A stretch of 64,000 nucleotides of DNA from a virus (lineage: Duplodnaviria > Heunggongvirae > Uroviricota > Caudoviricetes). Numbering within the stretch: the first letter of the stretch is position 1; every line of letters begins with the position of its first letter. Under the pieces are notes generated by a model. That model was not told where the DNA came from. It searched no databases and saw only the letters and a program-made list of their open reading frames with translations. Below, piece after piece: positions 4,438-52,512 of this stretch. Both the position numbers and the translations under genes were made by a program. The stretch is from IMG/VR virus record IMGVR_UViG_3300009131_000001, positions 17,814 to 81,813 of that record, one strand, 5' to 3'.

Positions 4438-4439
4438 AA

Positions 4440-4625: not shown

Positions 4626-4639
4626 TTTATTTTTATTAA

Positions 4640-4861: not shown

Positions 4862-4862
4862 T

Positions 4863-8246: not shown

Positions 8247-8493
8247 TAATATCTAAGTCTTCTATTTTACCAAAGAATCCCCAAATACTATCAATAATCT
8301 GCTTATTCTTATCTAGTAGAACATATCCATAGACATCTCCATTTAGATAATCTTGTTGCTCTTTCTTTAGCAATTCTTCATCAAATACATCATTACCATC
8401 AATATAAATATCAGGCATTGATTCTGGTTCATAAGGGTCTATATCTTTATGAATCTCAATAAATACACCTCTATAAGGTACTTCTAGCTCCAT
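8188..8493 (-). CDS. hypothetical acidic protein
   Basis: 101 aa, D/E-rich. Confidence 0.4.
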   Translation of the reverse strand: MELEVPYRGVFIEIHKDIDPYEPESMPDIYIDGNDVFDEELLKKEQQDYLNGDVYGYVLLDKNKQIIDSIWGFFGKIEDLDIIDRAKERIDTFYKYGQLSD

Positions 8494-8504
8494 ATTATTT
8501 TGTT

Positions 8505-8741
8505 TTATTCTATTAAACCGTTTAGAATTGATTGTTTGTCAACACTTGGGAAAGTTTCATCCCAATCGGATTTGGCATTATCAGCAGCCCATCTAATACA
8601 AGCATTCCAAGCATCTTTTTGAAATAATCTAATCATTCCTTTTATTTGTAAGTGCTCTTCTTCATCTTTAAAATTAACACAGTTAAGTAAGAATCTATCT
8701 ATATAATTATCTGATTGTAACTCTTCAAATTCTTCTACCAT
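8505..8741 (-). CDS. hypothetical protein
   Basis: Co-oriented ORF. Confidence 0.4.
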   Translation of the reverse strand: MVEEFEELQSDNYIDRFLLNCVNFKDEEEHLQIKGMIRLFQKDAWNACIRWAADNAKSDWDETFPSVDKQSILNGLIE

Positions 8742-8742
8742 A

Positions 8743-8946
8743 CTATTTCTTTTTGTATACTTTCTCTAGCCATATTTTAAATCTCTTACACTTAAATTTA
8801 AATATTAATATACCCCCTAATAAAAGTACATTAATAAGATTGCAAGTATACGCAACATTAAGTCCATATAAAATATAGCATATAGTATCCGTAAGTAACC
8901 AAAATATATAAAAGGTTACTAAAACTAAATCTTTGTGTGTCACCAT
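8743..8946 (-). CDS. small membrane protein
   Basis: 67 aa with two hydrophobic segments (FYIFWLLTDTICYILYGL; LINVLLLGGILIF). Confidence 0.4.
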   Translation of the reverse strand: MVTHKDLVLVTFYIFWLLTDTICYILYGLNVAYTCNLINVLLLGGILIFKFKCKRFKIWLEKVYKKK

Positions 8947-9617
8947 GTTATTTCTTTTTTATTTATTGCACATAAAAATTCATTAATATTCTTAAACATC
9001 CAAAATAATACATCTGGATTATTAATTGGATTTTTAACTTTAATTTTTCTATGCATAATACTAATATGCCTTTCAAAACTCCAGTTATCTTCCCCAATCA
9101 TTACCCAACAAATATGAGGATAATTATTAATTTCCTCAATAGTCTTTATAATAAATTTATTCCAAAGATGTAAATGGTCTAGAGGTCTATTCTTTACATA
9201 GGTTAATTCCTTGTTTAGAAGAAATACTCCTTGTTTAGACCATCTACTTAAATCCATTAAATCTAATCCACTTAGTAGATTAGTGTCATTTTCAGGATAT
9301 TCACTATTAACCTCTTTAAAAATAATCTTTAGAATTGGAGATTCCTCAATTAATTTAGAACCTGATAAGCATAATCCATCATATTCTCCATTGTAGGTAT
9401 AGTGATTGGCTATAATAACTACTTTAATATCTTTAGGTTGAGTTAATCTATAACATCTAAAGTTATCCTCACTACCTTGTTCTGGATATATTATTTTACC
9501 AGACTTTCGCTCATTTGCTATAAAAGTATTGATCTTATAGAAATCATTAGAGGTAAGGAATGGCTCTAATTTAGAATACCATTCCTCACCAAATAGTTGA
9601 ATTAGTCTATCTTTCAC
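8940..9617 (-). CDS. Uracil-DNA glycosylase (family 1) homolog with substituted catalytic motifs
   Basis: ERKSGKIIYP matches Ung ERQSGVTIYP. KVVIIANHYTYNGEYDGLCLS aligns to [22 protein letters not shown] but replaces GQDPYH. RWSKQGVFLLNKELT matches SWARQGVLLLNTVLT. IKVKNPINNP sits in place of LKAPHPSPLS, so His is lost. Confidence 0.6.
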   Translation of the reverse strand: MKDRLIQLFGEEWYSKLEPFLTSNDFYKINTFIANERKSGKIIYPEQGSEDNFRCYRLTQPKDIKVVIIANHYTYNGEYDGLCLSGSKLIEESPILKIIFKEVNSEYPENDTNLLSGLDLMDLSRWSKQGVFLLNKELTYVKNRPLDHLHLWNKFIIKTIEEINNYPHICWVMIGEDNWSFERHISIMHRKIKVKNPINNPDVLFWMFKNINEFLCAINKKEITW

Positions 9618-9827
9618 CTAATCAATTTCTTTAAAATTAGGGTCTTCCCTTTCTAAATAATATTCCCAACTACCCAAAACATCAGTAATTGTAGTTTCAG
9701 CAAATCCCTGAGATTGTAATAGCTCCCTAAAATGTCTACAATACTTGTAAATATTATTATCAGGGTCAAATTCAACTGAGTATTTCTCATTCTCAGTTTC
9801 TAATGATAGTTTTACCCTCCTACTCAT
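9618..9827 (-). CDS. hypothetical protein
   Basis: Co-oriented ORF. Confidence 0.4.
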   Translation of the reverse strand: MSRRVKLSLETENEKYSVEFDPDNNIYKYCRHFRELLQSQGFAETTITDVLGSWEYYLEREDPNFKEID

Positions 9828-10032
9828 ACTTTCCCATTTTAAACATAAAATTTAATGAATCTATTAATTCTAAAGCTTCTTTTCTATTTAAGTAGGCTAG
9901 ATTCCTTTTAGAGTTATCATCAGTTTCTATAATACTTAAGAAAATAGAATCTTCATTACTGTAGTCCTTTTGTAACTTTATTTGTTGCTCTGTATCACAA
10001 ATGCTTATTATAATATCTCTCTCATCAATCAT
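9820..10032 (-). CDS. hypothetical protein
   Basis: Co-oriented ORF. Confidence 0.4.
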   Translation of the reverse strand: MIDERDIIISICDTEQQIKLQKDYSNEDSIFLSIIETDDNSKRNLAYLNRKEALELIDSLNFMFKMGKYE

Positions 10033-10756
10033 AATCAGTTAATATTTCGTCATTAATATTAGGAATAGAATCTAACTCATTTCCTTTAGGTATTTTACAG
10101 CCTAAAAAGTTTTCAAGCTCTTCAATATAAAATGGACTTTGCATAACTACCTTATATTGAATAGAATCTACTCCATTAAAAATTCTTATTTTCTCCTTTA
10201 ATTTACTAGAAAATTTTGAATATTCCGCATTTTTAAATTTATTTATATCTTCCCAATGTTCTTTAGGAATAGTGAAAGCATAGACAACTAAATTTGGAGA
10301 TACATCTATTGTTTTGTAGTAATTAGGATATTTTGTAATTAATGATTCAAAATATCTATACTTTTCACCTCTTATAAATCTATATGTTAAATATAAAAAC
10401 TTCCCATTTAAAGACTTGTCATTATCAATTTCTAAGTAAGCATTGATAAAGTAGCTATTTAAAAATAACTTCTGCCTAGATATTCCTAGACATGGGAGTA
10501 AATATGAAGTAGTTCTATTTCTACAATAAGAAATTAATGTATAATTACCTTCAGAATTTTTATTAATCTTTCTTATCCTATACTTCACATTTACCCCATC
10601 AATCTGAATATTAATATAATCATCAGTATTCAGAGTAGTATCTCCACATTGTAAACTTGTTATGCTATTATCTTTATAATTTTCAACTATATTAAAAGGT
10701 GTGGAAATCTCTACTAATCTACTTGTCTTCTTATTTATAGTAAAGAATTCCTGCAT
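10025..10756 (-). CDS. hypothetical protein
   Basis: 243-aa ORF with overlap coupling. Confidence 0.5.
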   Translation of the reverse strand: MQEFFTINKKTSRLVEISTPFNIVENYKDNSITSLQCGDTTLNTDDYINIQIDGVNVKYRIRKINKNSEGNYTLISYCRNRTTSYLLPCLGISRQKLFLNSYFINAYLEIDNDKSLNGKFLYLTYRFIRGEKYRYFESLITKYPNYYKTIDVSPNLVVYAFTIPKEHWEDINKFKNAEYSKFSSKLKEKIRIFNGVDSIQYKVVMQSPFYIEELENFLGCKIPKGNELDSIPNINDEILTDYD

Positions 10757-10761
10757 ACAAA

Positions 10762-11778
10762 CTATCCAATTATATTTTTACCTAATTCATAGTATCTAAA
10801 CTTATGTTCCCAACTGTCATTCTGAATATGCCATTTTAATTCTATAATTAATTCAGGAATAGACGGAATCTTATTATATTTAGGATATAAAACATCCATA
10901 AAATAAGTAGTTTTTTCTGCTTCACCATCTAAAATATCCCTATCTAATACCCAATCAACTAAATCATCACATAACTCATAAACCTCTGGTTTATTTGCTC
11001 CTGTTGTATCAATAGTTACATTGATATATTTATACTCATAATCAGCATATTCAGAGTAATTCTTCTTAAACAATTCCCCATAAAAAGGAGTTTGTAGATA
11101 GTAATGATACTTCCAGAAATTAGATATAAAATTACCCGAATAAGTCTTTACATCTACAATATAGACAATCTTTTCATTCTCATCTACATCTACAATATCA
11201 GGCTTACCTTTACACTCTATTCCCCATAATTCAGCAAATAGTTCTAATTGCTTAAATTGTTTGGTAAAATTTCTAGAATCTAAGTAATATTCAGTAGTTG
11301 GTTCATAGTGTGCAGATGTAATTAGGTTTTCAGCAAATTCTAATGTGTCAGCAGATATTACAGATTTACCTTCCGCTTGAGCAGATTGCATTGTTTCAAC
11401 ATAATCAGAACATCCTTCATAGAATTTCTTAATTACAGTTTCATCTTTTAACCTAGAATCATAATTTACATTATCTCTAGCTTGTAGTATGACTATATTA
11501 CTTGGACTTGTTAGTAATGGATCTGAAGCCAATCTAACATATTCATCTGCTAATGCTAGCATCCCTCCACTAGGTTTATTCCTAACTACTGCAAACTTAT
11601 TATAAACTGGTTCATCACTAGTTAGTAGATGGTCTACAATATTTCCTAATTCAAATCCACTTGAGGATTTATCTTCACCATCTATCATAGCCTTAGCCTC
11701 TTTAGGGGAGGCTATTAGGCTAGATAGTAGCGAATAATTTACTGCTTTACTTTCTTTGTAATTTAATATTTCTCCCAT
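10762..11778 (-). CDS. PD-(D/E)xK (RecB/Cas4-like) nuclease, probable recombination exonuclease
   Basis: GKPDIVDVDENEKIVYIVDVKTYSG gives a D...D/ExK core. A QTPFYGELF Q..Y motif follows. Confidence 0.55.
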   Translation of the reverse strand: MGEILNYKESKAVNYSLLSSLIASPKEAKAMIDGEDKSSSGFELGNIVDHLLTSDEPVYNKFAVVRNKPSGGMLALADEYVRLASDPLLTSPSNIVILQARDNVNYDSRLKDETVIKKFYEGCSDYVETMQSAQAEGKSVISADTLEFAENLITSAHYEPTTEYYLDSRNFTKQFKQLELFAELWGIECKGKPDIVDVDENEKIVYIVDVKTYSGNFISNFWKYHYYLQTPFYGELFKKNYSEYADYEYKYINVTIDTTGANKPEVYELCDDLVDWVLDRDILDGEAEKTTYFMDVLYPKYNKIPSIPELIIELKWHIQNDSWEHKFRYYELGKNIIG

Positions 11779-12332
11779 GGTTGTATTGCTGTATGTAATC
11801 CTAATGTACCCCCCTTATAAAATGTTAGAGGGTTTGATATATAATTATGCATTGCCAATCTTTTTAGAAATTTAGTGCCTATCAAAGAACTTATAGAATT
11901 TCTAATAGTTTTCTCAGTACAATTTAAAAATTTAGCACATTCTTGAATTTGTAAGGAACTAAAAATTATAATTTTAGATTTAGGTTCTTGAAATTCTACC
12001 ATATACATAAATACTTGTAAATCTCTAAGGCTGCTGAATTCAGTCAACCATTCCAATCCTTCAGTTGAATGTACCATAATAAAAGTTTCTTTTTTATCTT
12101 TTTCCCAACTTCTATTATGAATTTCCGAATGACATTTATAACATAGAGTTATTAACAAACTATTATCATATTCCCAAGCATTTCTGCCCTTTATATATTT
12201 AATATGATGTATATTTAATTTATCAATACTTCCACACCTTGTACATTTATAGGAATCTCTTTCTAAAATAGATTGCCTTTTACTTTTCCATTCTTTAGTC
12301 AATAATTGTTTTCTATATTCTTCTTTATTCAT
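11763..12332 (-). CDS. HNH endonuclease
   Basis: CTRCGSIDKLNIHHIKYI...NSLLITLCYKCHSEIH is a classic HNH C..C...HH...N...C..CH motif. Confidence 0.7.
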   Translation of the reverse strand: MNKEEYRKQLLTKEWKSKRQSILERDSYKCTRCGSIDKLNIHHIKYIKGRNAWEYDNSLLITLCYKCHSEIHNRSWEKDKKETFIMVHSTEGLEWLTEFSSLRDLQVFMYMVEFQEPKSKIIIFSSLQIQECAKFLNCTEKTIRNSISSLIGTKFLKRLAMHNYISNPLTFYKGGTLGLHTAIQPWEKY

Positions 12333-12370
12333 TATTGCATAATTTATTTTATTTATAAAATATTTTTATA

Positions 12371-12886
12371 TTAATTATTGCTAGACTCACTTTCAAACTC
12401 TATGTTCAAAGTTAATTTACCCCCTTCTTTTAAAAGTTGTTCTCTAGTTTTTAAATCTCCTTTCCAGAAATAGCAAGGATTTATAGTATAATCTCTTTTT
12501 TTATCTGTAATGAAATTATTTTTCTTTAGTCTACTAATAGAATTGGCTAGGGTATTGTAAGTAATACCTAATATTTCACATATTTCATCTCTTCTATTAG
12601 TGGACATACTCACTTTCCCAGTATTAAATTCTGCCATATTACATAGCACATATAAAACTTTTAAATCTACAATACTTTTCAACCCTATAATATCTTTCAA
12701 TAAAGTAAGAAAAGTAAAGTAAAATTCATCAGATTTTGTCTTAACAGAAAACGTTTTAGAGATAGTATTAGAAATAACTTCTCCAGTTTCCTTATCTACA
12801 ATTTCAGTAGTAGTTTCATTTTTTAACCTCATGTCTGTACTTATTAATTTTAATACAAACATATTAAAATTATCTGACACTTCCAA
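12371..12886 (-). CDS. putative winged-helix DNA-binding regulator (paralog of 40721..41200)
   Basis: Shares D(K/P)ETGEVIS...F...K and a wHTH-like ICEILGITYNTLANSISRLKKNNFI with the plus-strand ORF at 40721. Confidence 0.5.
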   Translation of the reverse strand: MEVSDNFNMFVLKLISTDMRLKNETTTEIVDKETGEVISNTISKTFSVKTKSDEFYFTFLTLLKDIIGLKSIVDLKVLYVLCNMAEFNTGKVSMSTNRRDEICEILGITYNTLANSISRLKKNNFITDKKRDYTINPCYFWKGDLKTREQLLKEGGKLTLNIEFESESSNN

Positions 12887-13029
12887 ATATATTTAATATT
12901 TTTTGATTAAAAAATTTAACTCCATAATTAAAAAGAGTAACTACAGAGTTAAATTTACTCATTGTCGAATTAAAATTAATAGTTGTAATTAACTGTAATT
13001 CAGTATAATATATGATGCTTCTTCTTATC

Positions 13030-13452
13030 TTATATATTTTCTTTATAATCAGTATCATCTTCATCTATAGAATCTTTTATATCATCAAAAAATTCTTCAA
13101 TTTCATTTTTTAAATCATAAAAGTTACTTCTAACATTTTCCGATGCTAATAAAGATGCTAGTATTTCGCTATTTAGATTTTTGAGAGAATACCCCAATTC
13201 ATCTGCTAATCCTAAAGATTCTGTAAGAGATGGGTCATTTTCTTGAAGATATTGAATAGCATTAGAGTAGTAAATAATTTCAACATTATATCCATCATTA
13301 TCTGCAATCATATCAGAAATAGATTCAAAAGGATTATCTAAATCTATACTATCAATATCTACATAATCATTTAGTTCAATACCGCATCTTTTAGATATAT
13401 CTTTAAGAAATAAGAATATTTTATCATAAATTATTGGATTCATATTTACCAA
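13030..13452 (-). CDS. highly acidic protein (candidate DNA mimic)
   Basis: 140 aa, rich in D/E (for example DIDSIDLDNPFESISDMIADNDGYN and the EEFFDDIKDSIDEDDTDYKENI tail). Confidence 0.5.
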   Translation of the reverse strand: MVNMNPIIYDKIFLFLKDISKRCGIELNDYVDIDSIDLDNPFESISDMIADNDGYNVEIIYYSNAIQYLQENDPSLTESLGLADELGYSLKNLNSEILASLLASENVRSNFYDLKNEIEEFFDDIKDSIDEDDTDYKENI

Positions 13453-14489
13453 TTTAGATTATTATCTTTTACAAACTTCTCAATCTCAATATCTCTTATA
13501 TCATGACATCCTGCCAAAATATAATAATAAACTCGTTGAGTTTGTAAATTTAGTTTTTTATAGATTCTTTGAACTTTATAATTACCAATATTTATAGGGC
13601 AACCGCTAGATTCCCATTCAGTATCAGTATCTACACACTCTCTAAACTTCTTGTATAATAACTCACAGTGGGATAGTGGAACTAAAACTCCTCTACTAGT
13701 TTCTACTGTATTTTGTTTTAACCTTAAATAAATAGGTACATTATATAAACAACCATTATATTCAAATGCTAACCACTTATCAATAAGTTCTTTTTCTTTT
13801 TGAGCTTTTAATTCTTGTGCTTTAAATCTGGCAAGTCTCAAAGATTCCACATCTTGTTGATACTTCTCTTCTACAAGAGTCTTTAAAGTTGAATCTGTAA
13901 AATACTTTAATTTCTTTTCATAACTCCCCTTAAATTTATTATTTGCTGCCCAATTTTTTACTTCAAACTTTAAATTATCTTCCTCAATCCATCTATATTT
14001 TTCATACTTTTCTAAGTATTCAGGAAGTAATTCTTCACATTGCATAGTACTACAAAAACTAGTAGCAGAATTTATTACAGACTGAAAATGTTTAGGATTG
14101 CCAAAATAGGAAATTCCATTATTCAAAGAGTTTTTATTTGCAGCAAGAGTTTCTACATATTCATCTAAATATGATCTTTTATCTGGAAAATTATGCCAAT
14201 TATTCCAATAAAATACTGACCAATCATTTGGAACAGCTCTACTAACATGTAATTGGTGTTTAGATGTTGAACTGCTATAAGAACCACTTCTGAATAGAAG
14301 TATTTTATTTTCAAAATCTGCTATTCCTATTACAGAGGAATAAGAATATATTTTATTATCCTGAAATTTAAAATTACTTCCATACCCATCACTTATCCCA
14401 AATTCATCCTGATGAAAAAATGCATGAGCAAGTTCCTTATTATTAAAACAATGTTTTGCCATATTACTACATATATAAAGACCTCTCAA
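13446..14489 (-). CDS. hypothetical protein
   Basis: 347-aa ORF (possible start at internal MAKH). No recognisable motif. Confidence 0.5.
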   Translation of the reverse strand: MRGLYICSNMAKHCFNNKELAHAFFHQDEFGISDGYGSNFKFQDNKIYSYSSVIGIADFENKILLFRSGSYSSSTSKHQLHVSRAVPNDWSVFYWNNWHNFPDKRSYLDEYVETLAANKNSLNNGISYFGNPKHFQSVINSATSFCSTMQCEELLPEYLEKYEKYRWIEEDNLKFEVKNWAANNKFKGSYEKKLKYFTDSTLKTLVEEKYQQDVESLRLARFKAQELKAQKEKELIDKWLAFEYNGCLYNVPIYLRLKQNTVETSRGVLVPLSHCELLYKKFRECVDTDTEWESSGCPINIGNYKVQRIYKKLNLQTQRVYYYILAGCHDIRDIEIEKFVKDNNLNW

Positions 14490-24077: not shown

Positions 24078-25385
24078 TTAAATAGGTATTTCATTAACGT
24101 TAGTAATTTCAGTAATCCATTCAGAATCTACATTTTTTAAACAAGATTCTAACCAAGTTTCTGACTGGGTATTTCTAGGAACAATCCACATACAAATACC
24201 TAAGTCATTAGTATTCAATCTATTAAGTCTTCCTGCCTTTTGACTACTACTGGTATCACTTCCATTAAAACTCTCCATAATAGCATATTTAGCATTTTTA
24301 AGGTTAAGTCCTAATGTAAGCATATCACAACTAGATAATTCTCTAATAACTCCTTCATTGAATTGCTCTAGAAGTAATTTATTAGAATCTGCTTCTTTCT
24401 TAGAATGTATAGAATATCTAGATAGTTTTGATGCTTGGTTAGTTAAAGCAGAGAATATTAAAACTTTATTATCAGTTCCTTGTAGTATTCTATCCTTAAA
24501 TCTATTGCACCAATACTTACTAGATTCTAAATTCCATAAGAATTCTTTTCTATATCTAATAGAATTAAAGAATGCTCTACCAGCATCAGAGTACTGTTTA
24601 TCTAACTTATTACCATTCTCATCAATACCTTTCATCCATTGAATAGAAATTTTAAAAAAATCATCAGCACCTAAATATGCCATAGTTTTCTTAGCCTTAT
24701 CATACCTCTCAGATAAGTATTGATATTGAGATAATTCTCCTTTAGTCCAAGATTTAGTTTTAGTTCCAACTTTTATTTTAAAATCATCAGTTAAATCATA
24801 TCTAAACACATAGTTCATAGTATGATTAATTAAACCATCTTTAGCACTATTATAATATTCAAATACAATTGGCAGTTTAGTACTATAGAATTGAGATTTA
24901 AACTCATCAGATTTATTAGGAGTACCTGTTAATCCGAGGATTTTCTTTCTTAGCCATAAGGCATTCTCAATTAAAGCAGAATACTCAGAAGATATTACAA
25001 GATGCCCCTCATCGATAATTATGAGATCATACTCATTAATTCTAGACTTACTCCATTTATAACAAGTCTGGATATTAAATAAGTCAATGCTAATTAAGGT
25101 ATCATCATATTCCCAAATAGAATCTAATACTTCCTCTATTTTTGTAAATCCCCACTTATGTAACTCATTACTCCAAGACTCTTTAAGGTTAGTTCTAGGA
25201 GAAGTTATAAGAACTTTTCTAGGAGTAAATCTTTTTATAGCCTTTATTCCTATCAAACTTTTACCTGAACCTGGTGTAGCTACAACAACTCCACAACAAC
25301 CTTTATTTATCCAAGTATTTAGTGCTTTGCTTTGAATTTCATCTTTAGTCATTAATCTAGTAAATTTGTTTCTACTACACTCCAA
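24078..25385 (-). CDS. SF2 DEAD/DEAH-box-type helicase
   Basis: Motif I ATPGSGKS, motif II IIIDEGH, motif III LTGTP, motif VI QKAGRLNR. Confidence 0.7.
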   Translation of the reverse strand: MECSRNKFTRLMTKDEIQSKALNTWINKGCCGVVVATPGSGKSLIGIKAIKRFTPRKVLITSPRTNLKESWSNELHKWGFTKIEEVLDSIWEYDDTLISIDLFNIQTCYKWSKSRINEYDLIIIDEGHLVISSEYSALIENALWLRKKILGLTGTPNKSDEFKSQFYSTKLPIVFEYYNSAKDGLINHTMNYVFRYDLTDDFKIKVGTKTKSWTKGELSQYQYLSERYDKAKKTMAYLGADDFFKISIQWMKGIDENGNKLDKQYSDAGRAFFNSIRYRKEFLWNLESSKYWCNRFKDRILQGTDNKVLIFSALTNQASKLSRYSIHSKKEADSNKLLLEQFNEGVIRELSSCDMLTLGLNLKNAKYAIMESFNGSDTSSSQKAGRLNRLNTNDLGICMWIVPRNTQSETWLESCLKNVDSEWITEITNVNEIPI

Positions 25386-25579
25386 GCCATATCTTCATTC
25401 CAAGAATTTTTAAATTCTTGAGACTCTTCTTTAAACCATTCCATATAGTCATTTTTAGTCTTTTCCTTATCTAATTCAATAGCTTTTTCAGCCCCCTCTC
25501 TAGACTTATGTAAAGAAATAGTATATATACCATCTGCATCTTGACAAGTTGCTGCATATATTTTATTCATAAATTTCAT
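25352..25579 (-). CDS. hypothetical protein
   Basis: Co-oriented ORF. Confidence 0.4.
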   Translation of the reverse strand: MKFMNKIYAATCQDADGIYTISLHKSREGAEKAIELDKEKTKNDYMEWFKEESQEFKNSWNEDMAWSVVETNLLD

Positions 25580-25874
25580 TAGTCACATCTTTAATTATTT
25601 TCTCAATTTCTTCACTTAATGTAAATAGTGCTATCTTTTGTCCATCTGTTAGATTATTATAGCACCAGTTTACATTAGAATTTACTTGAGATTTAAATGC
25701 TTCAAATGTTCTTTCTATACCTTTTAATTCCTTTTTGTAATTAGGGTTTAATTTGGGATAGTTAGCATTCAATTCTTTAGAGAGTAAATCCGATAAAATT
25801 TGTAACTTGAGGATACTCTTTATGAATTCCATATCAGTACCCTCAAATTGTAATTTATTTTTTAAATTAGACAT
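25563..25874 (-). CDS. hypothetical protein
   Basis: Co-oriented ORF. Confidence 0.4.
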   Translation of the reverse strand: MSNLKNKLQFEGTDMEFIKSILKLQILSDLLSKELNANYPKLNPNYKKELKGIERTFEAFKSQVNSNVNWCYNNLTDGQKIALFTLSEEIEKIIKDVTNEIYE

Positions 25875-31401: not shown

Positions 31402-31510
31402 TGGCAAAGGCAGGATTTGAACCTGCAATTTGTAGCCTTGTAGTGTCATTGGGGCTACATCGAGAAAACACACTAAAACTCTAAGCGTCTACCAATTCCG
31501 CCACTTTGCC
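31402..31510 (-). tRNA. tRNA-like gene with an oversized central region. The acceptor, D and T arms are Leu-type (type II), but the anticodon/variable region cannot be folded canonically.
   Basis: Minus-strand GGCAAAG-TG-GCGGAATTGGTAGACGC...GCAGGTTCAAATCCTGC-CTTTGCC-A has a perfect 7-bp acceptor stem and a 5-bp T stem. GTGGCGGAATTGGTAGACGC is identical to the bacterial tRNA-Leu D arm. The 58 nt between the D and T arms exceed the ~35 nt expected for type II. A 7-bp stem TGTAGCC/GGCTACA is present. Confidence 0.5.
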
Positions 31511-39777: not shown

Positions 39778-40044
39778 TTACAGTGTATCCTGAATATTTT
39801 CTTCAGGATTACTTCCAGCCTTATGAATAAGGTAGAATTCATCTGCACCAGCAACTACCCTAGATACCATTGTGTTAGTCCTATAATCAGAACTAACTGC
39901 GCCACTAATCCTACCTAACTTGGTAGAATAGCAGGAGAAGAATAACTTACCACTATTAGGATTCTTAATAATGTCAATCTTAGTGATTCCATTATTACCC
40001 TTGAAGTCTGCTAGTGAGAAGGTGTTAACAAATGTTAAGTCCAT
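39778..40044 (-). CDS. hypothetical protein (first gene of the leftward block)
   Basis: 88-aa ORF adjacent to the divergent control region. Confidence 0.45.
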   Translation of the reverse strand: MDLTFVNTFSLADFKGNNGITKIDIIKNPNSGKLFFSCYSTKLGRISGAVSSDYRTNTMVSRVVAGADEFYLIHKAGSNPEENIQDTL

Positions 40045-40086
40045 GATAACGTAATTTTGAAATGAAACAATAAATACAAGGTTAAA

Positions 40087-40246
40087 TATAAAGTGTGCAA
40101 TCCACTATTCTGTCTGTAATTTACCTGTTAACTTGCTTCAGCGTTCCATCATAGCCTCCAAGTCTTAGTTGAGCAGCTAGGTAACGGTTAGGCAGGACTT
40201 TCACCTTCAGGTTGTGGTATAACTTCAAATTAAGCACACTTTATAT
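40087..40246. ncRNA. candidate structured RNA or IR-bounded element: 12-bp perfect inverted repeat (tataaagtgtgc / gcacactttata) enclosing a ~136-nt segment of clearly higher GC than its surroundings
   Basis: Seen in the sequence. It is non-coding in all frames and lies in the 5' region of the leftward early transcription unit. Confidence 0.35.
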
Positions 40247-40330
40247 AGGAAACCCCAATAGGGGATATGCCCAAAATTTAGTTTGGGTGTGGGGGTTATG
40301 GGTGGGTTAGTCAGTGATATTATTAGTATT

Positions 40331-40413
40331 CAAAATTTTGAAAAAATTATCAAAAATTTTATAGTTAATGATCTCAGTAATATCCAAAATTTTAAAAATT
40401 TTTCAAAAAATTA
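40331..40413. repeat. Two ~30-bp AT-rich direct repeats (caaaattttgaaaaaattatcaaaaatttt / ccaaaattttaaaaatttttcaaaaaatta), each containing the palindrome CAAAATTTTG or a near match. Candidate origin iterons or regulator sites.
   Basis: Direct reading; about 53 bp centre-to-centre. Confidence 0.5.
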
Positions 40414-40432
40414 TTTTACTACTTAAGGTCAT

Positions 40433-40465
40433 GTACTTAAATAAGTACACTAGTGTACTTAAATT
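40433..40465. promoter_or_regulatory. Stacked palindromic operator-like sites: gtacttaaataagtac and the 18-bp perfect palindrome aagtacactagtgtactt. There are three GTACTTA / TAAGTAC half-sites.
   Basis: Direct reading. Confidence 0.5.
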
Positions 40466-40600
40466 AAGATACCTAAAGAATAGTAGTTATAGAGTAAATA
40501 AAGAGAAGGAACTGTTAGTATTTTTATAGGATAATTATTTGAATACTAGTGAGTTAAGTATTGAAATACTCCATTCCTTAGTAGTATCAGACTACCTTGA

Positions 40601-40638
40601 TAGTCATACCAGAGTGATGCTTAGTCATACCAGAGTGA
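40601..40638. promoter_or_regulatory. Tandem 17-bp direct repeat tagtcataccagagtga x2 with a 21-bp period, immediately upstream of the rightward promoter
   Basis: Direct reading. Confidence 0.5.
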
Positions 40639-40667
40639 CTAAAAATGTTAAATAAGTACGACTATTA

Positions 40668-40699
40668 TTTGGAATTGTTAGATATTAGTCATATTTTTG
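40668..40699 (+). promoter_or_regulatory. Bacteroidota-type sigma-A promoter for the rightward operon: -33 TTTG, a 20-nt spacer, then -7 TAttTTTG
   Basis: TTTG at 40668-40671 and TATTTTTG at 40692-40699. The spacing matches the Bacteroides/Flavobacterium consensus TTTG-N19-21-TAnnTTTG. The ATG at 40721 has no SD. Confidence 0.5.
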
Positions 40700-40720
40700 T
40701 AAGACTAAATTAAAATAATT

Positions 40721-41200
40721 ATGCAGTTAGAGAAAATTGTAGAAACTGAACATGGGTTTGTAGACCCTGAAACTGGAGAAGTTATTTCTTCATCCTTTAC
40801 TAATACAAAGCATATCATAAAGAAGAAGACTACTTTTGATAATTTTGTGCAGGTATATATTAGAGATTTGGCAGATATTTATAGGATTACTAGTAGAACT
40901 CAGATTGCTCTTCTAATGGTACTATGTGAAGAATCTAAAATGATTTTAAGTAATTCAGATATTCTTCCGACATTTACTGCTCTTATTGATGATAAGCAAA
41001 GATGGGCAGAGAAGTTACAAATAAATGCAGGAAAGAATGTGGATAATGCCCTAGCTGAATTGGTTAAAAAAAATATTGTACTTAGAATAAGTAGAGGCAA
41101 ATATTCTTTAAACCCTAAGTATATATTCTCAGGAGCATTAAAGGATAGACCTAAAATGCTTGAACTATGTGTGAAATATGAAATATCAGAATCTGTATAA
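40721..41200 (+). CDS. putative winged-helix DNA-binding regulator (paralog of 12371..12886); first gene of the rightward block
   Basis: DPETGEVISSSFTN...; ALAELVKKNIVLRISRGKYSLNPKYIFSG wHTH-like segment. Confidence 0.5.
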   Translation: MQLEKIVETEHGFVDPETGEVISSSFTNTKHIIKKKTTFDNFVQVYIRDLADIYRITSRTQIALLMVLCEESKMILSNSDILPTFTALIDDKQRWAEKLQINAGKNVDNALAELVKKNIVLRISRGKYSLNPKYIFSGALKDRPKMLELCVKYEISESV

Positions 41201-44004: not shown

Positions 44005-45000
44005 ATGGGTAGAGTAAGAAAAATAGGAGTCTATAAAATTACTTGTAATATTACTGGAATGTCTTATATAGGACAGAGTAATGATGTTTATAGAAGATTG
44101 AGATTTTATAAATCTCTGAGATGTAGGCAACAACCAAGAATTTACAGATCTCTATCTAAGTATGGCATAGATAATCACATATTTACAATCATTTGGGAAT
44201 CTACCTATAGTAGTAAACACATAATATTACAAAAGGACACTCTTAATATTTTGGAAAAATTTTACATATTTAAATATAATACCCTATCTCCCAATGGGTT
44301 AAATTTGTATTCTGGAGGAGATTCTTATACAGCATCTGAAGAAACTAGACTTAAATTAAGTAAATCTAAAAGTGGTATAAATCATCCAATGTATGGAAAG
44401 ATTGGAAAATTAAATCCAGCATCAAAGGAGGTTGTGCAATTAAGTAAAGATGGAGAGTTTATAAAAGATTGGGAATCTGCAACTGTTGCAGAAAAGACTT
44501 TAAATATAGCTAGAGATTTAGTATCAGCATGTTGTAGAGAAGATAGATATAGTACTAATGGGTATATATGGATGTGGAAAGCAGATTTTGATACTTACGG
44601 GCCAAAAATATACAAATTACCAAAAAGAAAAGATAGTCTATCAAAGAAGACTTATCAATATGATTTACAAGGTAAATATTTAAGAGAGTGGAATTCTACT
44701 ATGGATATAGAAAGAGAACTTAATATTGCAAATACATCTATAAGTAATGTATGCACAAATCAAAAAGGACAGGCTGGAGGATTTCAATGGAGATACTTTA
44801 TAAATGAAAATGGTATAAATGAATATATTACTAAGGGATTTCATGTAGTAGTTACAGATATAGATACAGGACTAATTCAAGAGTTTGAAAGTCTAGCTAA
44901 AATAAGTAAGACCTTTAAAATAAAGTGGTATATAATTAAAGAATGTTGCGAAGGTATTAGGAAATATTATAAAAATTATAAATTTAGTTATAAATATTAA
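44005..45000 (+). CDS. GIY-YIG homing endonuclease with NUMOD-type DNA-binding repeats
   Basis: GVYKITCNITGMSYIGQS is a GIY-YIG core. NUMOD3-like TRLKLSKSKSGINHPMYGK. Repeated IENR1/NUMOD1-like segments (KEVVQLSKDGEFIKDWESATVAEKTLNIA; LREWNSTMDIERELNIANTSISNVC). Confidence 0.7.
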   Translation: MGRVRKIGVYKITCNITGMSYIGQSNDVYRRLRFYKSLRCRQQPRIYRSLSKYGIDNHIFTIIWESTYSSKHIILQKDTLNILEKFYIFKYNTLSPNGLNLYSGGDSYTASEETRLKLSKSKSGINHPMYGKIGKLNPASKEVVQLSKDGEFIKDWESATVAEKTLNIARDLVSACCREDRYSTNGYIWMWKADFDTYGPKIYKLPKRKDSLSKKTYQYDLQGKYLREWNSTMDIERELNIANTSISNVCTNQKGQAGGFQWRYFINENGINEYITKGFHVVVTDIDTGLIQEFESLAKISKTFKIKWYIIKECCEGIRKYYKNYKFSYKY

Positions 45001-45901: not shown

Positions 45902-46095
45902 TGTTTATTATAAGATTTCATTTTAGAAATGTAGACGAATCTATAGATTTTATAGAACAATCCAAATCTATGTTAGAAGGATTTGACTATAAGATTAATA
46001 TAGAGGATAACGGTAAAATAGTTAAAGTTGAAATATTAAAACTAAAAGATAAAGTAATATGGGAAGTAAAAGGAAAGTGTTTTTATATGAACTAG
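45901..46095 (+). CDS. hypothetical protein
   Basis: 64-aa ORF with ATGA-type overlap. Confidence 0.35.
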   Translation: MFIIRFHFRNVDESIDFIEQSKSMLEGFDYKINIEDNGKIVKVEILKLKDKVIWEVKGKCFYMN

Positions 46096-47312
46096 CAACT
46101 GGTAAGACTATAGAATTTAATAGTCAGACTTCTGCTGGAGAGTTTTTACATGTTAGTGAAGCAACAATACGTAAGTATAATAATACTCTTAAAGAGATTG
46201 ATGGGTATAGAATATATAGTGGAGATAAAGTAGCACTTGCTGGAGAATCCTTATTAAATAGTATTAATGACCATAAAGAAACAAATGAAAACATTAATAC
46301 TAATGAGTTGGATTCAAGGATAAGTGAATTAGGTTATTCTAAATCTGATATACAGTCTGTTAAAACTTGGCAAACCCAGAAAGGTGAGACTAGATTTAGT
46401 ATTGTAACTAAACCAGATCAAGTTAATTCTGAAGAATTCCTGGAGAATCTTAAGAATAAGTTATCTGAATCCGTCAAACCATTTGAGATTCAACTTACAC
46501 CTGCTAAAGTTAGTGGGGTAGATTTAATAGTTTATACTTCAGATAAGCATGTTGGGGCTTGTAGTAAAGATTCTCAATATAATAATGAGTATAATGAGAT
46601 GGAATTTACTCGTAGAATGCAACAAATCTATCAAGAAATTGCATATGTAAAATTTGAATTTGGGCATATTAATAGTCTAATATTTATTGATTTAGGGGAT
46701 AATCTTGATGGGTATAATGCTCAAACTACTAGAGGTAATCATCCACTACCCCAGAATATGACTGATGAGGAATCATTTGATACTTATGTAAATGTACATA
46801 AGATATTCTTTGATAGTTTGGTAGAAAATAGTATGGCTAGTGAGTATAAGGCATACTTTGTAAATGATAGTAATCACTCTGGAAGTTTCGGATATACTGC
46901 AAATAGGGCATTGGAGATTTATCTTAATGTTAAGTTTCCATTCATAGAAACTATTCAGATGAATAAGTTTATGGAACATTTTATTCTAGGAGATGATTGC
47001 TATATTCTATGTCATGGTAAAGACAAGATTGATAGAAAGAATGGATTACCATTACATCTTAACGATGGTACTTATAAGTTAATATCTGACTACATTGACT
47101 ATAATAAGTTACATAATTATAACGTACATTTTGTAAAGGGGGATTTACACCAGAGTGCTTTTGAAAAGAATAGTAAGTTTACTTATAGGAATATACCTAG
47201 TGTATATGGTGCTAGTAAGTGGATTATGAATAACTTTGGATTGAATAAGCCTGGATTCTCAATGGATGTTTATCATATGGGGAATATTTATAGAAGAGAT
47301 ATTGAACTTTAA
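46059..47312 (+). CDS. calcineurin-like metallophosphoesterase with an N-terminal NUMOD1/IENR1-like DNA-binding module
   Basis: MPP motifs in order: DKHVG (D.H), GDNLDG (GDxxD), NDSNHSG (GNH-like), CHGKD (GH), GDLHQS. The N-terminal YELATGKTIEFNSQTSAGEFLHVSEATIRKY resembles homing-endonuclease DNA-binding repeats. Confidence 0.65.
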   Translation: MGSKRKVFLYELATGKTIEFNSQTSAGEFLHVSEATIRKYNNTLKEIDGYRIYSGDKVALAGESLLNSINDHKETNENINTNELDSRISELGYSKSDIQSVKTWQTQKGETRFSIVTKPDQVNSEEFLENLKNKLSESVKPFEIQLTPAKVSGVDLIVYTSDKHVGACSKDSQYNNEYNEMEFTRRMQQIYQEIAYVKFEFGHINSLIFIDLGDNLDGYNAQTTRGNHPLPQNMTDEESFDTYVNVHKIFFDSLVENSMASEYKAYFVNDSNHSGSFGYTANRALEIYLNVKFPFIETIQMNKFMEHFILGDDCYILCHGKDKIDRKNGLPLHLNDGTYKLISDYIDYNKLHNYNVHFVKGDLHQSAFEKNSKFTYRNIPSVYGASKWIMNNFGLNKPGFSMDVYHMGNIYRRDIEL

Positions 47313-49122: not shown

Positions 49123-52100
49123 ATGGATTATACCAAACTAAATAAGTATCAAACATTAATAACTCCAGAACTAGAAAAGTCTTTACCTAAAGAAGTTTAT
49201 GCAGAACTTATCAATACTATTGATACTATTCCTTTTGTTAATTGGTTAGTACAACCTGAAGAAGTTAGGGGATTTGCTAAAGATAGGGTTAGGCATAAAG
49301 ATTTAGATGATTCTGATGAAAGAAAGCAATATGATGATAATAGGATAGTTGTAGATGTAACTAAACCTCATATACTTGAGGATATGGATTTCTTTAGGGA
49401 AAGGGCTATATTCTTTGATAAGTATGGATGTTATACAGATTTAACTCCTAATCCTAATCCTAATAGTGATTACGCTTTATTTTGGAAGGAAGAAATTAGA
49501 AGGTGGAAGGATGGATTAATTAAACCTAGTGATGGAGAATGGATTCCAGGAGGATTGTACTTTTATTGGAATTATTGTCCAATATGGCAAACCCAAACTG
49601 ACAGTATAACTATAAAAGGTAGAACTAAATCTAGGGCTAAACGTGTTAAAAAATTCCCTAAACCTTGGTTAGGAGATTATTTATTTTATCATTATATAGA
49701 ACAGGCTCAAGAATATGCACTACATGGTAAACTTCTAAAATGTCGTGGCGTTGGATTTAGCTTTAAAATGGGGAGTTTATCTCCTAGAAATATGTATGTG
49801 TATCAAGGTGAAGGAAATCCTAATTTCCATTTGGCTAGTGATAAAGGATTTTTACAGGGTGATAAGGGAGTATATAGTAAAGTAATCACTGTATTAGACT
49901 GGATTGCAGATACTACCCCACTCCCAAAATTAAGACTTGTGAATAGTGCTAGAAGTATGGAAATTAAACTGGGCTATCAAGATGAATATGGGGTAAATAG
50001 AGGCCCTCAGTCTAGTGTATTTGGTATATCTCTTAAGGATAATCCGGATAAGGCTCGGGGTATTCGCGGGCCTTTAGTCCATTATGAGGAAGATGGGCTA
50101 TTTCCTAATCTAGAAGATGCATGGAATATTAATCTTAAATCTGTAGAGGATGGTGACGAATCATTTGGTTTTCAATTAGCTGGCGGGTGTTTAACTGAAA
50201 ATAATTATGTATGGACTCATAATGGAAGTCTAAAAAGAATTAAAGATCTTAAAGTATCTGATGGTATAATAGGATTTAATAATGATAATCAAACTTTTAC
50301 TAAAGAACCTATTACTTATTTACAACCTACTATTAATAAACCTTGTTTGAGAATAGAAACTAATACTGGAAGATTTATTGAATGCAGTACAGATCATCCT
50401 ATACTGTACAGTCATTCTTTACTCTTTAAAAGAGAAGAACTACCTTCAGTAAATGGTAAAAGAAAAAGAAAGACATTTAAAGTAGTATCATTTAATCCTG
50501 CAAATAATTTAGTAATAGGAGACCAAGTAGCAACATTAGATCAGTTTCCCATATTTTCAGACATAGATATGTGGAATCCCAGACTAGTTGGATGGTTAGT
50601 AGGTGATGGTAGTTATGGTATAGATAAGACTCCAGTATTATCTAATTGTGAAGATGAGATAAATAGTTGGTTACATAATAATTTTAAAGATGATGTAACT
50701 ACAGAAAAATCATATATAACTAAGGATGGTAAAACTTATGAAGAAAATAGAATAAAAGGTATCACTAAAGAATTACGTAAGTTAGGGATATATGGACAAA
50801 CCAAATCAAATAAAAGACTTCCAATAGACATACATAATTACTCATTGAACACAGTCACGGAGTTTATAGGGGGATTTTATGATACTGATGGATATATTTC
50901 AAATACAGGTAGAGTTTCTTTATCCTCAGGACATAAAGAAATCTTGTTAGAAATGCAATTGTTATTACAAAAATTAGGTATTCATGGAAATATTATGTAT
51001 GTTAAACCAAATTTTAAAAACCCAAAAAGTAAAAATGGACATTATAATCTAGAAGTAGCAGATAGAGATAGTTTATTAAATTTTCAAAAGCACATAAAAC
51101 TATCTCCTAAAGTAAAAGCAGAAAGACTTGCTAATATTCATAATTTATATAAAAGTAAATCTCAACGTGCAAAACATCTTTCTGGAGTAAGATTTGAAAG
51201 AGTAGTTAAGATTGAGAATATAGGTATTCAACCTGTTTATAATTTAACTGCTGGAGAAACACATACTTATGTAGGAAATGGAATTATTACTCACAATACA
51301 GGAGGTACAGAAGGGGCTAGTTTTGAGGGTTCTGAGAAACTATTTTATCATCCAGATGCCTATAATATATACGGAATAAGTAACGTATATGATAGAAATG
51401 TAAATTCTGATTTAAAGTGTGGTTTCTTCTGGGGAGCATACTTAAATAGAAATAAGTGCTATGATTTAGATACAGGAGAACCTGATGTAATAAAGGCATT
51501 GTGTCAAATTTTACAAAATAGGTATAAAGTAAAAAATAATTCTACAGACCCCAAAGCAATTACTCAAAAAAAGGCCGAAGAACCTATTACTCCACAAGAG
51601 GCTATCATGCGTAGGGAGGGGAATATATTTCCTGCTGAAGATATTAAGAACTATCTTGCTGAAATAATGCCTAACTTCCAAAACTTTGTTAGTAGTCACT
51701 ATGTAGGCAAACTAGTTATTAATACTTCTGGAGATGTAGAGTGGAAACTAAATGAAGGTAACTTATACCCTATTAGGGATTTTCCATTTTTAGATGGTAA
51801 TAAAGAAGGTGCTGTAGAAATATATGAAATGCCTAAAAGATTTGGTAATGGGGAAATTCCTGTTGGTAGGTATATTTGTGGTATAGACCCCTATGACGAT
51901 GAAACTGGTACTTCATTAGGCAGTATATTTGTATTTGATAGGTGGAGTAGATGTATAGTTGCAGAGTATACTGGTAGACCTAGATTTGCAGATGAATTCT
52001 ATGAGATTTGCTATAGATTAGCCAAGTATTACAATGCAATGATAATGTATGAGAATAATAAGAAAGGATTATTTGTATATTTTAGAAATAAGAATATACT

Positions 52101-52512
52101 TCATATGCTGGCAGATGTTCCTAAAATACTTACTGATAAGCAGTCTTTAAAACCTGATACATTATATGGGAATAAATCCAAAGGGTTCAATGCCACTGCT
52201 GAAGTAAATACATTCTTAAGAACTGCTCAAGTTAAATGGATGTGTGAACCTTTAATGGATGATGAAGGAAACCCTAATGGATTGACTAGACTACATAAGA
52301 TTAGAAGTGTTGCATATCTTAAGGAGTGTGCTAGTTGGAATAGTGATGGTAACTTTGATAGGGTTAGTGCTATGGGAGCAGTAATGCTGTATGATTTAGA
52401 ATTAGGTAATGTAGAGATTAAAAGAACTACTGAACAAATTAAAACTAGAGCACATGATAAATATTTTGATAAGTTCTATGGAAACAAATCTAAAATGTTA
52501 AATACATGGTAA
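49123..52512 (+). CDS. terminase large subunit interrupted by an intein
   Basis: The C-terminal RNase H-like nuclease domain (YICGIDPYDDETGTSLGSIFVFDR...IVAEYTGR...EFYEICYRLAKYYNAMIMYENNKKG) is typical of TerL. A 370-aa intein is inserted after ...FQLAGG. Confidence 0.65.
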   Translation: MDYTKLNKYQTLITPELEKSLPKEVYAELINTIDTIPFVNWLVQPEEVRGFAKDRVRHKDLDDSDERKQYDDNRIVVDVTKPHILEDMDFFRERAIFFDKYGCYTDLTPNPNPNSDYALFWKEEIRRWKDGLIKPSDGEWIPGGLYFYWNYCPIWQTQTDSITIKGRTKSRAKRVKKFPKPWLGDYLFYHYIEQAQEYALHGKLLKCRGVGFSFKMGSLSPRNMYVYQGEGNPNFHLASDKGFLQGDKGVYSKVITVLDWIADTTPLPKLRLVNSARSMEIKLGYQDEYGVNRGPQSSVFGISLKDNPDKARGIRGPLVHYEEDGLFPNLEDAWNINLKSVEDGDESFGFQLAGGCLTENNYVWTHNGSLKRIKDLKVSDGIIGFNNDNQTFTKEPITYLQPTINKPCLRIETNTGRFIECSTDHPILYSHSLLFKREELPSVNGKRKRKTFKVVSFNPANNLVIGDQVATLDQFPIFSDIDMWNPRLVGWLVGDGSYGIDKTPVLSNCEDEINSWLHNNFKDDVTTEKSYITKDGKTYEENRIKGITKELRKLGIYGQTKSNKRLPIDIHNYSLNTVTEFIGGFYDTDGYISNTGRVSLSSGHKEILLEMQLLLQKLGIHGNIMYVKPNFKNPKSKNGHYNLEVADRDSLLNFQKHIKLSPKVKAERLANIHNLYKSKSQRAKHLSGVRFERVVKIENIGIQPVYNLTAGETHTYVGNGIITHNTGGTEGASFEGSEKLFYHPDAYNIYGISNVYDRNVNSDLKCGFFWGAYLNRNKCYDLDTGEPDVIKALCQILQNRYKVKNNSTDPKAITQKKAEEPITPQEAIMRREGNIFPAEDIKNYLAEIMPNFQNFVSSHYVGKLVINTSGDVEWKLNEGNLYPIRDFPFLDGNKEGAVEIYEMPKRFGNGEIPVGRYICGIDPYDDETGTSLGSIFVFDRWSRCIVAEYTGRPRFADEFYEICYRLAKYYNAMIMYENNKKGLFVYFRNKNILHMLADVPKILTDKQSLKPDTLYGNKSKGFNATAEVNTFLRTAQVKWMCEPLMDDEGNPNGLTRLHKIRSVAYLKECASWNSDGNFDRVSAMGAVMLYDLELGNVEIKRTTEQIKTRAHDKYFDKFYGNKSKMLNTW
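50188..51297 (+). mobile_element. Intein with a LAGLIDADG homing endonuclease domain inside the terminase large subunit
   Basis: It starts with Cys (CLTENNY) at 50188 and ends ...GIITHN at 51297, followed by Thr (+1). Two LAGLIDADG motifs are present: LVGWLVGDGSYGID and FIGGFYDTDGYIS. The length of 1110 nt is in frame. Confidence 0.75.

Follow-up and report, generated by a model that had tools for sequence, protein, structure and literature searches.

A long non-coding gap (positions 40045 to 40720) lies between two divergent blocks of genes in the stretch of IMG/VR record IMGVR_UViG_3300009131_000001 analysed here (the window: 64 kb, guanine plus cytosine (GC) content 29.8%), and the question raised by this locus is whether the gap serves to control transcription, to start replication, or to do both. 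We know of no experimental definition of the replication origins or of the early promoters of crAss-like phages, the most abundant phage group of the gut. From its sequence features the locus is best classed as a cassette of the initiator type, probably autoregulated, whose promoter belongs to the crAss 'middle' class: the first rightward gene, repL1, encodes a protein of the RepL family (RepL1), and the phased repeats upstream of it are putative binding sites for this protein.

The leftward block (2359-40044) carries the genes of a family-A DNA polymerase (PolA) and a superfamily 2 (SF2) helicase, and the rightward block (40721 to beyond 63176) those of an intein-bearing large terminase (TerL) and the portal protein. 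The portal shares 36% identity with its counterpart in Cellulophaga phage phi14:2, matches 150 crAss-type records and hits phrog_6547 at 1.8e-123; TerL matches phrog_6681. By its crAss-type portal and TerL and its two-strand modular genome, the window is assigned to a crAss-like phage (Crassvirales); the gene of the virion RNA polymerase falls outside it. DNA-level relatives were not found among the INPHARED phages by megablast and blastn.

The exact RepL1 protein is present on 23 public contigs, the longest of 99.7 kb. The comparison set is composed of about 20 related contigs: L002-L010 encode an identical RepL1 protein and have about 90-96% DNA identity (the close relatives), and in the others the protein identity of the RepL1 homologue is 92% (L013-16), 63% (L017-18 and L011-12), 59% (L019-24), 57% (L025) or 53% (L039). 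By this comparison the gap resolves into eight parts (Table 1). An earlier reading of the same DNA (the original prediction) had described a divergent control region between two transcription blocks; this layout is confirmed, but three of the parts, namely the insertion, the GC-rich module with its hairpins and G-tract, and the conserved non-repetitive block, had been overlooked.

Table 1. Parts of the gap and the two repL genes, with coordinates in the window.
Feature	Coordinates	Strand	Remarks
Conserved leader of the first leftward (presumed early) gene	40045..40071	-	Relatives 90-97% identical over 40041-40071
Strain-specific insertion of ~175 bp, an orphan resembling a miniature inverted-repeat transposable element (MITE)	40072..40246		Relatives lack it
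Conserved GC-rich module, 47% GC	40247..40312		69-88% conserved in relatives
Hypervariable AT-rich spacer, 16% GC, A-tracts phased at ~10 bp	40313..40430		42-45% identity to relatives, many indels
Palindrome cluster: GTACTTA-AA-TAAGTAC (40433-40448) overlapping a 20-bp perfect palindrome (40442-40461)	40433..40461		83-97% conserved
Conserved non-repetitive, non-coding block	40466..40578		86-97% identical, against 62% at repL1 codon position 3
Three phased units, putative RepL1 binding sites	40578..40642	+	97-100% conserved
Predicted host RNA polymerase (RNAP) 'middle' promoter with putative operator	40660..40708	+	Same 32-nt architecture as phi14:2 P110 and P108
repL1, 159-aa winged-helix RepL-family protein, first rightward gene	40721..41200	+	Pfam PF05732
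repL2, paralogue	12371..12887	-	Promoter homologous to that of repL1, own inverted repeats

The phased units start at 40578/79, 40600/01 and 40621/22, with spacings of 22 and 21 bp. Unit A is degenerate (TTAGTAG...), unit B (TAGTCATACCAGAGTGA) has a complete left arm but only part of the right one, and unit C is a full inverted repeat, TTAGTCA-TACCAGAG-TGACTAA (40621-40642). A further inverted repeat of related sequence, TTAGTC-N12-GACTAA (40685-40708), is the fourth site; it covers the -7 box of the repL1 promoter together with the expected start of transcription. The tandem 17-bp direct repeat with 21-bp phasing of the original prediction is exact, but each unit is really an inverted repeat, TTAGTCA-N8-TGACTAA. 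All four elements of the original prediction are present at or near their stated positions, but the third and the fourth, the tandem repeat and the promoter, are not independent of each other, since the related inverted repeat overlies the -7 box. The 17-nt sequence, present twice at 21-bp spacing, is the sole close direct repeat of at least 14 nt in the window and arose in none of 30 Markov shuffles (0 in 30). Inverted repeats of the type TAGTC-N-GACTA are found nowhere else in the 64 kb, and the clustering of half-sites has a P of about 0.002. A second cluster of possible RepL1 sites at 25345-25585 was considered and dropped, being made of direct half-sites that fall mostly within open reading frames (ORFs), with no inverted repeats.

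In the relatives the units (40579-40645) are 97-100% identical, against 62% at codon position 3 and 96% at codon position 2 of repL1, which indicates selection as strong as at codon position 2. Contigs whose RepL1 homologue has only 53-63% identity (L011, L017, L021, L025, L039) still carry the arms of the inverted repeats, with different spacers between them (TACATGAA, CGTATGAA, CGCATGAG, CTCTTGAA, TCCATGAA, CTCATGAA); the number of copies ranges from one to three, with spacings of 21, 22 or 42 bp, and both the inverted repeat across the promoter and a purine box of the upstream block are kept. A pattern of constant arms and free spacers is characteristic of a protein that binds DNA as a dimer and not of an RNA stem.

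The whole cassette of repeats, promoter and repL gene thus persists in relatives of 53-63% protein identity, and it is not bound to a divergent junction. In L011 (GCA_017973895.1, JAEMOI010000001.1; 97 kb; positions 1-14174) the repL1 homologue and its upstream cassette stand between two genes of the same strand, encoding proteins of at least 3998 aa and of 1233 aa. That the cassette accompanies the gene into this context marks it as a module mobile within crAss-like genomes. Other RepL clades carry other inverted-repeat arrays upstream: one is that of repL2, and another is found in L040/L041, where the homologues precede helicase and DnaB genes and have repeat-bearing upstream regions of 330-430 bp.

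The promoter of repL1 is composed of a half-site GACTAT (40660-40665), an extended -33 box TATTTGGAATTGTTAGATA (40666-40684) with TTTG at 40668-40671, and a -7 box TATTTTTG (40692-40699), the last flanked by TTAGTC (40685-40690) and GACTAA (40703-40708). From 40668 to 40699 it reads TTTGGAATTGTTAGATATTAGTCATATTTTTG, with a 20-nt spacer between TTTG and TAnnTTTG, and it ends 21 nt before the ATG at 40721; the TTTG-N20-TATTTTTG promoter of the original prediction is therein exact, and its assignment to a Bacteroidota type is supported by the match to two mapped middle promoters of phi14:2, P110 (TTTGGATATCTCAGAATTAAGTATTATCTTTG) and P108 (TTTGCATATGTCAAATATTTTACGTAGTTTTG). The central block is TGTTAGATA here, TCTCAGAAT in P110 and TGTCAAATA in P108. 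In the 64 kb the pattern TTTG-N17-22-TAnnTTTG has three plus-strand matches and one minus-strand match, and the extended box TTTGGAAnTGTnAGATA is exact only at the two repL promoters. Both the -33 and the -7 motif are kept in L013-L016, with changes only at the 'nn' positions, and the operator inverted repeat is conserved in distant relatives. A scan with the sigma-70 consensus gave no more matches than in shuffles, and no terminators were found.

Middle promoters of phi14:2 are recognised by the host sigma-70-type RNAP (Drobysheva et al., bioRxiv 10.1101/2020.03.07.982082), and 40668-40699 is accordingly classed, by motif (TTTG and TAnnTTTG about 19-21 nt apart around a conserved central block), as a predicted host-RNAP promoter of the crAss 'middle' class. 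Early transcription in phi14:2 covers the replicative strand and is carried out by gp66, an injected virion RNA polymerase, and no common motif was found in the early promoters; the opposite strand is middle/late and is transcribed by the host RNAP from a tripartite -35/-10-like motif (bioRxiv 10.1101/2020.03.07.982082). By analogy with these strand classes, the leftward block of the window would be an early replication module and the rightward block middle/late, and the gap a divergent early/middle control region whose timing is taken from phi14:2.

RepL1 and RepL2 score 28.3 and 32.6 bits against Pfam PF05732, above the gathering cut-off of 20.3, and are 30% identical to each other (E 3e-12), which confirms the claimed paralogy of the gene at 12371 and the first rightward gene, both encoding winged helix-turn-helix (wHTH) proteins. 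A profile search with RepL1 gave 81 homologues, mostly members of PF05732, on contigs of phage size (94-185 kb). NCBIfam gave no match and a sequence search of the PDB found nothing; a search with RepL1 for related loci in IMG/VR found none, and no RepL1 homologue was detected in phi14:2. The AlphaFold (AF2) model of RepL1 has a predicted local distance difference test score (pLDDT) of 66.6 and is confident over residues 47-130, which form a wHTH core. The 5' end of repL1 (40737-40776) itself contains a 19-nt direct repeat at 21-bp spacing, which encodes a 7-aa tandem duplication (IVETEHG / FVDPETG) that RepL2 lacks.

The repL2 promoter (12887-12856, TTTGGAAGTGTCAGATAATTTTAATATGTTTG) has the same 32-nt layout as that of repL1. 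The translational start of repL2 is probably the ATG at about 12829 and not the TTG at 12886, since the promoter motif overlaps the longer ORF. The region upstream (12830-13030, minus strand) contains an inverted repeat AAATTTAACTC...GAGTTAAATTT (12912-12956), a second pair TAATTTTAATA/TATTAAAATTA over the -7 box, and a TAAGTAC half-site. The original prediction had the wHTH paralogues together controlling the operator array of the gap. An array bound by RepL1 is indeed the best reading of the sites, but joint control by both paralogues is unsupported, because repL2 has its own and different inverted repeats.

According to the mechanism that we propose, the host RNAP would transcribe repL1 from the middle promoter, and RepL1 dimers would cooperatively occupy the site over the promoter and the three phased units 60-125 bp upstream, which by their spacing of 21-22 bp lie on one face of the helix. 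Once filled, the sites would repress the promoter of repL1 itself. It is probable, judging from the arrangement and conservation of the sites, that RepL1 is the protein that binds the array and that binding is cooperative and autorepressive. The array, together with the neighbouring AT-rich spacer, which would be bent and easily melted, might also let RepL1 open the DNA for the start of replication. We put forward only tentatively, by analogy with iteron replicons, that the array may double as a RepL-dependent origin: at least three phased repeats stand beside a gene of an initiator family, as in iteron origins, with the difference that inverted repeats are atypical units for iterons. In crAssphage, which has two repL genes, Ori-Finder places an origin directly upstream of the first one and long-read coverage is raised there (PMC10983915).

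Several observations weigh against the proposed mechanism or its origin part. L011 and L021 have degenerate -33 and -7 boxes. The structure of RepL1 cannot separate an initiator from a regulator, since Foldseek against the PDB gave only generic and non-significant wHTH matches (N-domains of plasmid Rep proteins, ORC winged helices, CRP, MarR, GntR; best E 0.06). The repL1 gene is on the structural (middle/late) strand, outside the replication block, and the origin of P1 lies inside repL and not upstream of it (PMC10983915). DnaA boxes (TTATNCACA, up to one mismatch) are not enriched, and their sole match in the gap falls inside the insertion. The spacer (40313-40430) is not the AT-richest stretch of the window, and its A/T tract is hypervariable and lies 150 bp from the sites. 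The GC-skew check suggested for the origin does give a cumulative minimum at about 40 kb, but this coincides exactly with the switch of the gene strand and is inseparable from it.

Some of these points would suit a pure transcriptional switch, in which the RepL-like wHTH proteins are regulators only, the sites are operators like OR and OL of lambda that time the middle genes, and replication starts elsewhere. The inverted repeat over the -7 box and transcription start, the half-sites flanking the -33 box, and the promoter-overlapping inverted repeats found at both paralogues are what such a switch would have, and CRP, MarR and GntR regulators are among the Foldseek neighbours; the absence of DnaA boxes and the place of repL1 on the middle/late strand point the same way. 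We nevertheless regard it as doubtful. Both proteins pass the Pfam RepL threshold, and three additional phased sites beside a bent AT tract exceed what simple autorepression needs. Homologues elsewhere precede helicase and DnaB genes, the origin of crAssphage is predicted upstream of repL with supporting coverage, and a regulator whose sites do not recur in the 64 kb has no visible regulon.

A further explanation is that the block 40466-40660, or else the module 40247-40312, encodes a small non-coding RNA and that the repeats are its hairpins. The high conservation in the absence of coding potential would fit, phi14:2 yields abundant non-coding RNAs from other long intergenic regions, and RNAalifold gives the GC-rich module a better consensus fold on the plus strand than on the minus strand (-12.5 vs -5.5 kcal/mol), with several G-U pairs. 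This is improbable, given that the covariation term of that fold is negligible (-0.34), that Rfam has no match anywhere in the gap, either at gathering thresholds or with E up to 10 over 39900-40900, and that no host-type promoter lies upstream of the block; invariant arms around varying loops are moreover the pattern of protein contacts, whereas RNA stems tolerate covariation.

By inference from N4 biology, a phage with a virion RNAP would need its early genes near the DNA end that enters first, and the gap might then hold the genome ends (the boundary of a direct terminal repeat) or a packaging signal, with the repeats as recognition sites of the terminase. GC hairpins beside AT tracts are compatible with such sites, and for crAssphage both a linear form and direct terminal repeats have been reported. 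This we consider very improbable: the data bear no mark of termini at the gap, the sites overlap the promoter as operators typically do, and the cassette of L011 is internal, between two giant genes, where a terminus would not travel.

That the repeats arose by chance in AT-rich, low-complexity intergenic DNA can hardly be maintained, for while about one perfect 18-bp palindrome is expected per 64 kb and neither the perfect palindrome nor the AT-rich duplication is conserved, the 17-nt tandem repeat is absent from shuffles, its sites are 97% conserved against a neutral 62%, and the architecture is kept across homologues of 53-63% identity; for the array at 40578-40708 chance is refuted, and it is a fair explanation only for the 54-bp duplication.

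The gap falls into a right half (about 40466-40720), the putative cis-acting cassette of repL1, and a left half, in which the GC-rich module stands at the head of the leftward replication block and is set apart from its first gene, in this strain, by the insertion. In the AT-rich spacer the original prediction had seen two 30-bp repeats carrying a palindrome. The repeats are present, but their unit is of 51 nt (40308-40358 and 40362-40412; 75% identical, 54-bp spacing), and the palindrome CAAAATTTTG is found only in the first copy, the second reading CAAAATTTTA. Among the nine close relatives only L006 has the second copy and the tract is rich in indels, which makes the repeats a strain-level tandem duplication in a hypervariable spacer and no conserved repeat system. 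A/T homopolymer tracts are similarly found upstream of phi14:2 P110 and in L017 and L039.

In the palindrome cluster, three half-sites and an 18-bp perfect palindrome had been described. Both are there, but the TAAGTAC/GTACTTA half-sites of the gap are four, with an extra one at 40653-40659 (25 in the window against 13 expected), and the palindrome (TAAGTACACTAGTGTACTTA) extends to 20 bp and is perfect only in this strain: all nine close relatives have GTAGTT at the third half-site, which breaks it. It is the sole perfect palindrome with arms of at least 8 bp in the 64 kb; a Markov control gives 0.87 palindromes with arms of at least 9 bp per 64 kb, so that its existence is unremarkable and only its location is remarkable. 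The first inverted repeat of the cluster shows one compensated change, C:G to A:T, in L013 and L016.

The non-coding block downstream of the cluster contains stop codons in all frames and a purine box AAATAAAGAGAAGGAAC (40496-40512), which recurs in L011, L017, L021, L025 and L039. A 53-aa gene called on a Logan contig, at 40368-40529, was rejected as not conserved, since its 5' half falls in the indel-ridden spacer.

The GC-rich module contains two hairpins, CCCC-AATA-GGGG (40253-40264) and CCCAAA-ATTTAG-TTTGGG (40271-40288), and a G-tract GGGTGTGGGGGTTATGGGTGGG (40285-40306). It holds both the sole C4-loop-G4 hairpin (40253) and the sole canonical G-quadruplex motif of the 64 kb; a functional G-quadruplex was dropped as a candidate, the third G-tract being lost in 5 of 9 relatives. 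Without the insertion, the module would sit about 35-100 nt upstream of the first leftward gene. In the 100-kb genome of phi14:2 only three hairpins of the C4-loop-G4 type are present: one in a transfer RNA (tRNA)-like T-arm, one directly after the stop codon of the major capsid gene, where it resembles a terminator, and the third (record position 98031) at 80 nt upstream of the first early gene. The divergent gap of L039 has two such hairpins (2532 and 2639) and that of L017 a longer GC stem (1118-1160). Short GC-only hairpins are thus near-absent from these genomes of 30% GC and yet recur at the divergent junctions of several crAss-like lineages, close upstream of the first early gene, and this cross-lineage link between GC hairpins and the divergent junction is real. 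The T-arm of phi14:2 (GGGGGTTCGAATCCCCCC, 4475-4492 of the record, L026) lies in a long region without annotated coding sequence (~2905-4601), which appears to be the stretch reported to yield abundant non-coding RNA.

The regularity singles out these hairpins as a specific candidate for the early promoter at which the virion RNA polymerase would start. The polymerase of phi14:2 is active in vitro only on single-stranded or denatured DNA, and an extruded hairpin or G-rich structure beside an easily melted A/T tract would offer it a single-stranded template, as hairpins do for N4. The gap has no minus-strand host-type -7 box (CAAAnnTA on the plus strand), which is consistent with a non-host early promoter for the leftward gene. 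That the module is the entry site or promoter of an injected virion RNA polymerase for leftward early transcription is a speculative and, on present analogies, unlikely proposal; if it were true, the 175-bp insertion would fall in the early 5' leader. The virion RNAP of coliphage N4 uses hairpins as early promoters, and there too short GC stems head the early block of a phage that injects its polymerase. The differences are that the polymerase family of N4 is unrelated and that polarity differs between the crAss-like hairpins, those of phi14:2 having the G-run first and that of the window the C-run.

The insertion has a GC content of 39-41%, against 29.8% for the window. Its terminal inverted repeats, ATATAAAGTGTGC (40086-40098 and 40234-40246), are perfect over 13 bp, and their outer ends enclose 161 bp. 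All nine relatives that span the site (L002-L007, L009, L013, L015) lack 40072-40244, so that 40071 joins 40245, and since both the 91%-identity and the 84%-identity clades are without the segment, the event is an insertion in this strain. Its flanks are AT/TA-rich and merge with the terminal repeats; by comparison with the empty site of L013 (AGGTTATAGGAA) a target-site duplication of TA or ATAT is possible. Folds of the single sequence have z-scores between -1.8 and -1.5 and show no structure apart from the outer stem. No ORF exceeds 38 codons, and the idea of a coding remnant was dropped for lack of support, the ORFs being of 35-38 codons. Self-BLAST against all loci and the window revealed no second copy. 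Pattern scans gave only unrelated chance matches, whether made with the terminal repeats (IMG/VR, GTDB genomes, JGI metagenomes) or with an internal 21-mer of the insertion and a conserved 18-mer (IMG/VR); these scans were for exact matches only, so that diverged copies could escape them.

Correia elements are MITEs of Neisseria. The insertion resembles them in its small size, perfect terminal inverted repeats and lack of coding capacity, in its AT-rich (TA-type) target, in its presence/absence polymorphism among strains and in its place between a control element and a gene start; it differs in being single-copy and without a known parent transposase.

At the far left of the gap, homology with the relatives ends at the ATG of the first leftward gene (40042-40044). 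This gene (39778-40044, minus strand) is non-homologous to its counterparts in L003 (87-329) and L013 (754-1002), with leader and ATG kept; that close strains differ in the gene and keep its leader and start codon points to cassette swapping at the head of the early block.

As to the host, Shine-Dalgarno (SD) sequences are absent as had been stated (an SD-like core precedes only 4 of 68 genes). A flavobacterial host (Flavobacteriia) is plausible only through the nearest cultured relative, most other portal matches being Bacteroides or gut crAss phages. Selfish elements abound in the genome: TerL (49123-52512, plus strand) is interrupted by an intein with a LAGLIDADG domain, and two plus-strand ORFs near it (44005-45000 and 46059-47312) have NUMOD1/NUMOD3 domains, which are typical of homing endonucleases. 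Rfam matches a tRNA on the minus strand at 31402-31510 (42.7 bits, E 5e-8); the match is 109 nt long, and where the anticodon arm would be expected it has an insert of 51 nt. ARAGORN, which found no tRNA, makes no call there; the match may represent a phage tRNA that contains an intron or is atypical in some other way.

The locus provides a binding-site model for RepL proteins with comparative support, composed of a TTAGTCA/TGACTAA half-site, a 21-bp phase and a promoter-overlapping operator. Should the cassette prove to work as a replicon, it could be used to build vectors for Bacteroidota and to engineer crAss-like phages. Two observations were unplanned, the GC-hairpin module as candidate early promoter and the orphan insertion with its terminal inverted repeats, the latter indicating that small elements of this kind can colonise the control regions of such phages.

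Compared with known systems, the locus is like that of crAssphage (Carjivirus communis) in having two distant RepL paralogues (24.6% identical there, 30% here), one of them first in its strand block at a divergent junction, with a repeat-bearing non-coding region upstream and a flip of GC skew. The two repL genes of crAssphage share the replication strand, whereas in the window repL1 comes first on the structural strand and repL2 lies within the replication strand; a phage-plasmid is not in evidence here. The crAssphage paper (PMC10983915) describes no inverted-repeat motif or phasing.

The phi14:2 promoters P110, P108, P070 and P075 share with the repL1 promoter the TTTG, a (T)GTCAGA(T)A-like centre, the TAnnTTTG and the 20-nt spacer, and P110, which has A/T homopolymer tracts upstream, likewise heads the structural strand at a divergent junction. 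The repL1 promoter differs in that the gene it drives is of the RepL family, that a putative inverted-repeat operator overlaps it, and that its transcription start is a predicted one.

We know of no RepL replicon other than the lytic one of phage P1 that has been studied in detail. It belongs to the same Pfam family and its phage RepL is likewise made from a repressible promoter. It differs in that oriL is inside repL and that its promoter, P53, is under the control of the C1 repressor and not of RepL (PMC10983915). The likeness of the P1 and firmicute RepL proteins to those of the window is seen only at the profile level.

Iteron theta replicons (pSC101, pPS10, R6K, F and oriR of P1) have Rep-binding repeats upstream of an autorepressed rep promoter. 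Their initiators are Rep_3 proteins with WH1-WH2 domains instead of RepL PF05732, and their iterons are bound by monomers, whereas here each unit is an inverted repeat that implies a dimer site; the gap also differs in its lack of DnaA boxes and in an AT-rich tract that is 150 bp off and hypervariable. What they have in common with the repL1 cassette is the layout: three to four repeats phased at about 21-22 bp before the rep gene, an AT-rich region nearby, an inverted repeat over the rep promoter (for what would here be autorepression), and a winged-helix protein as the initiator, a putative one here.

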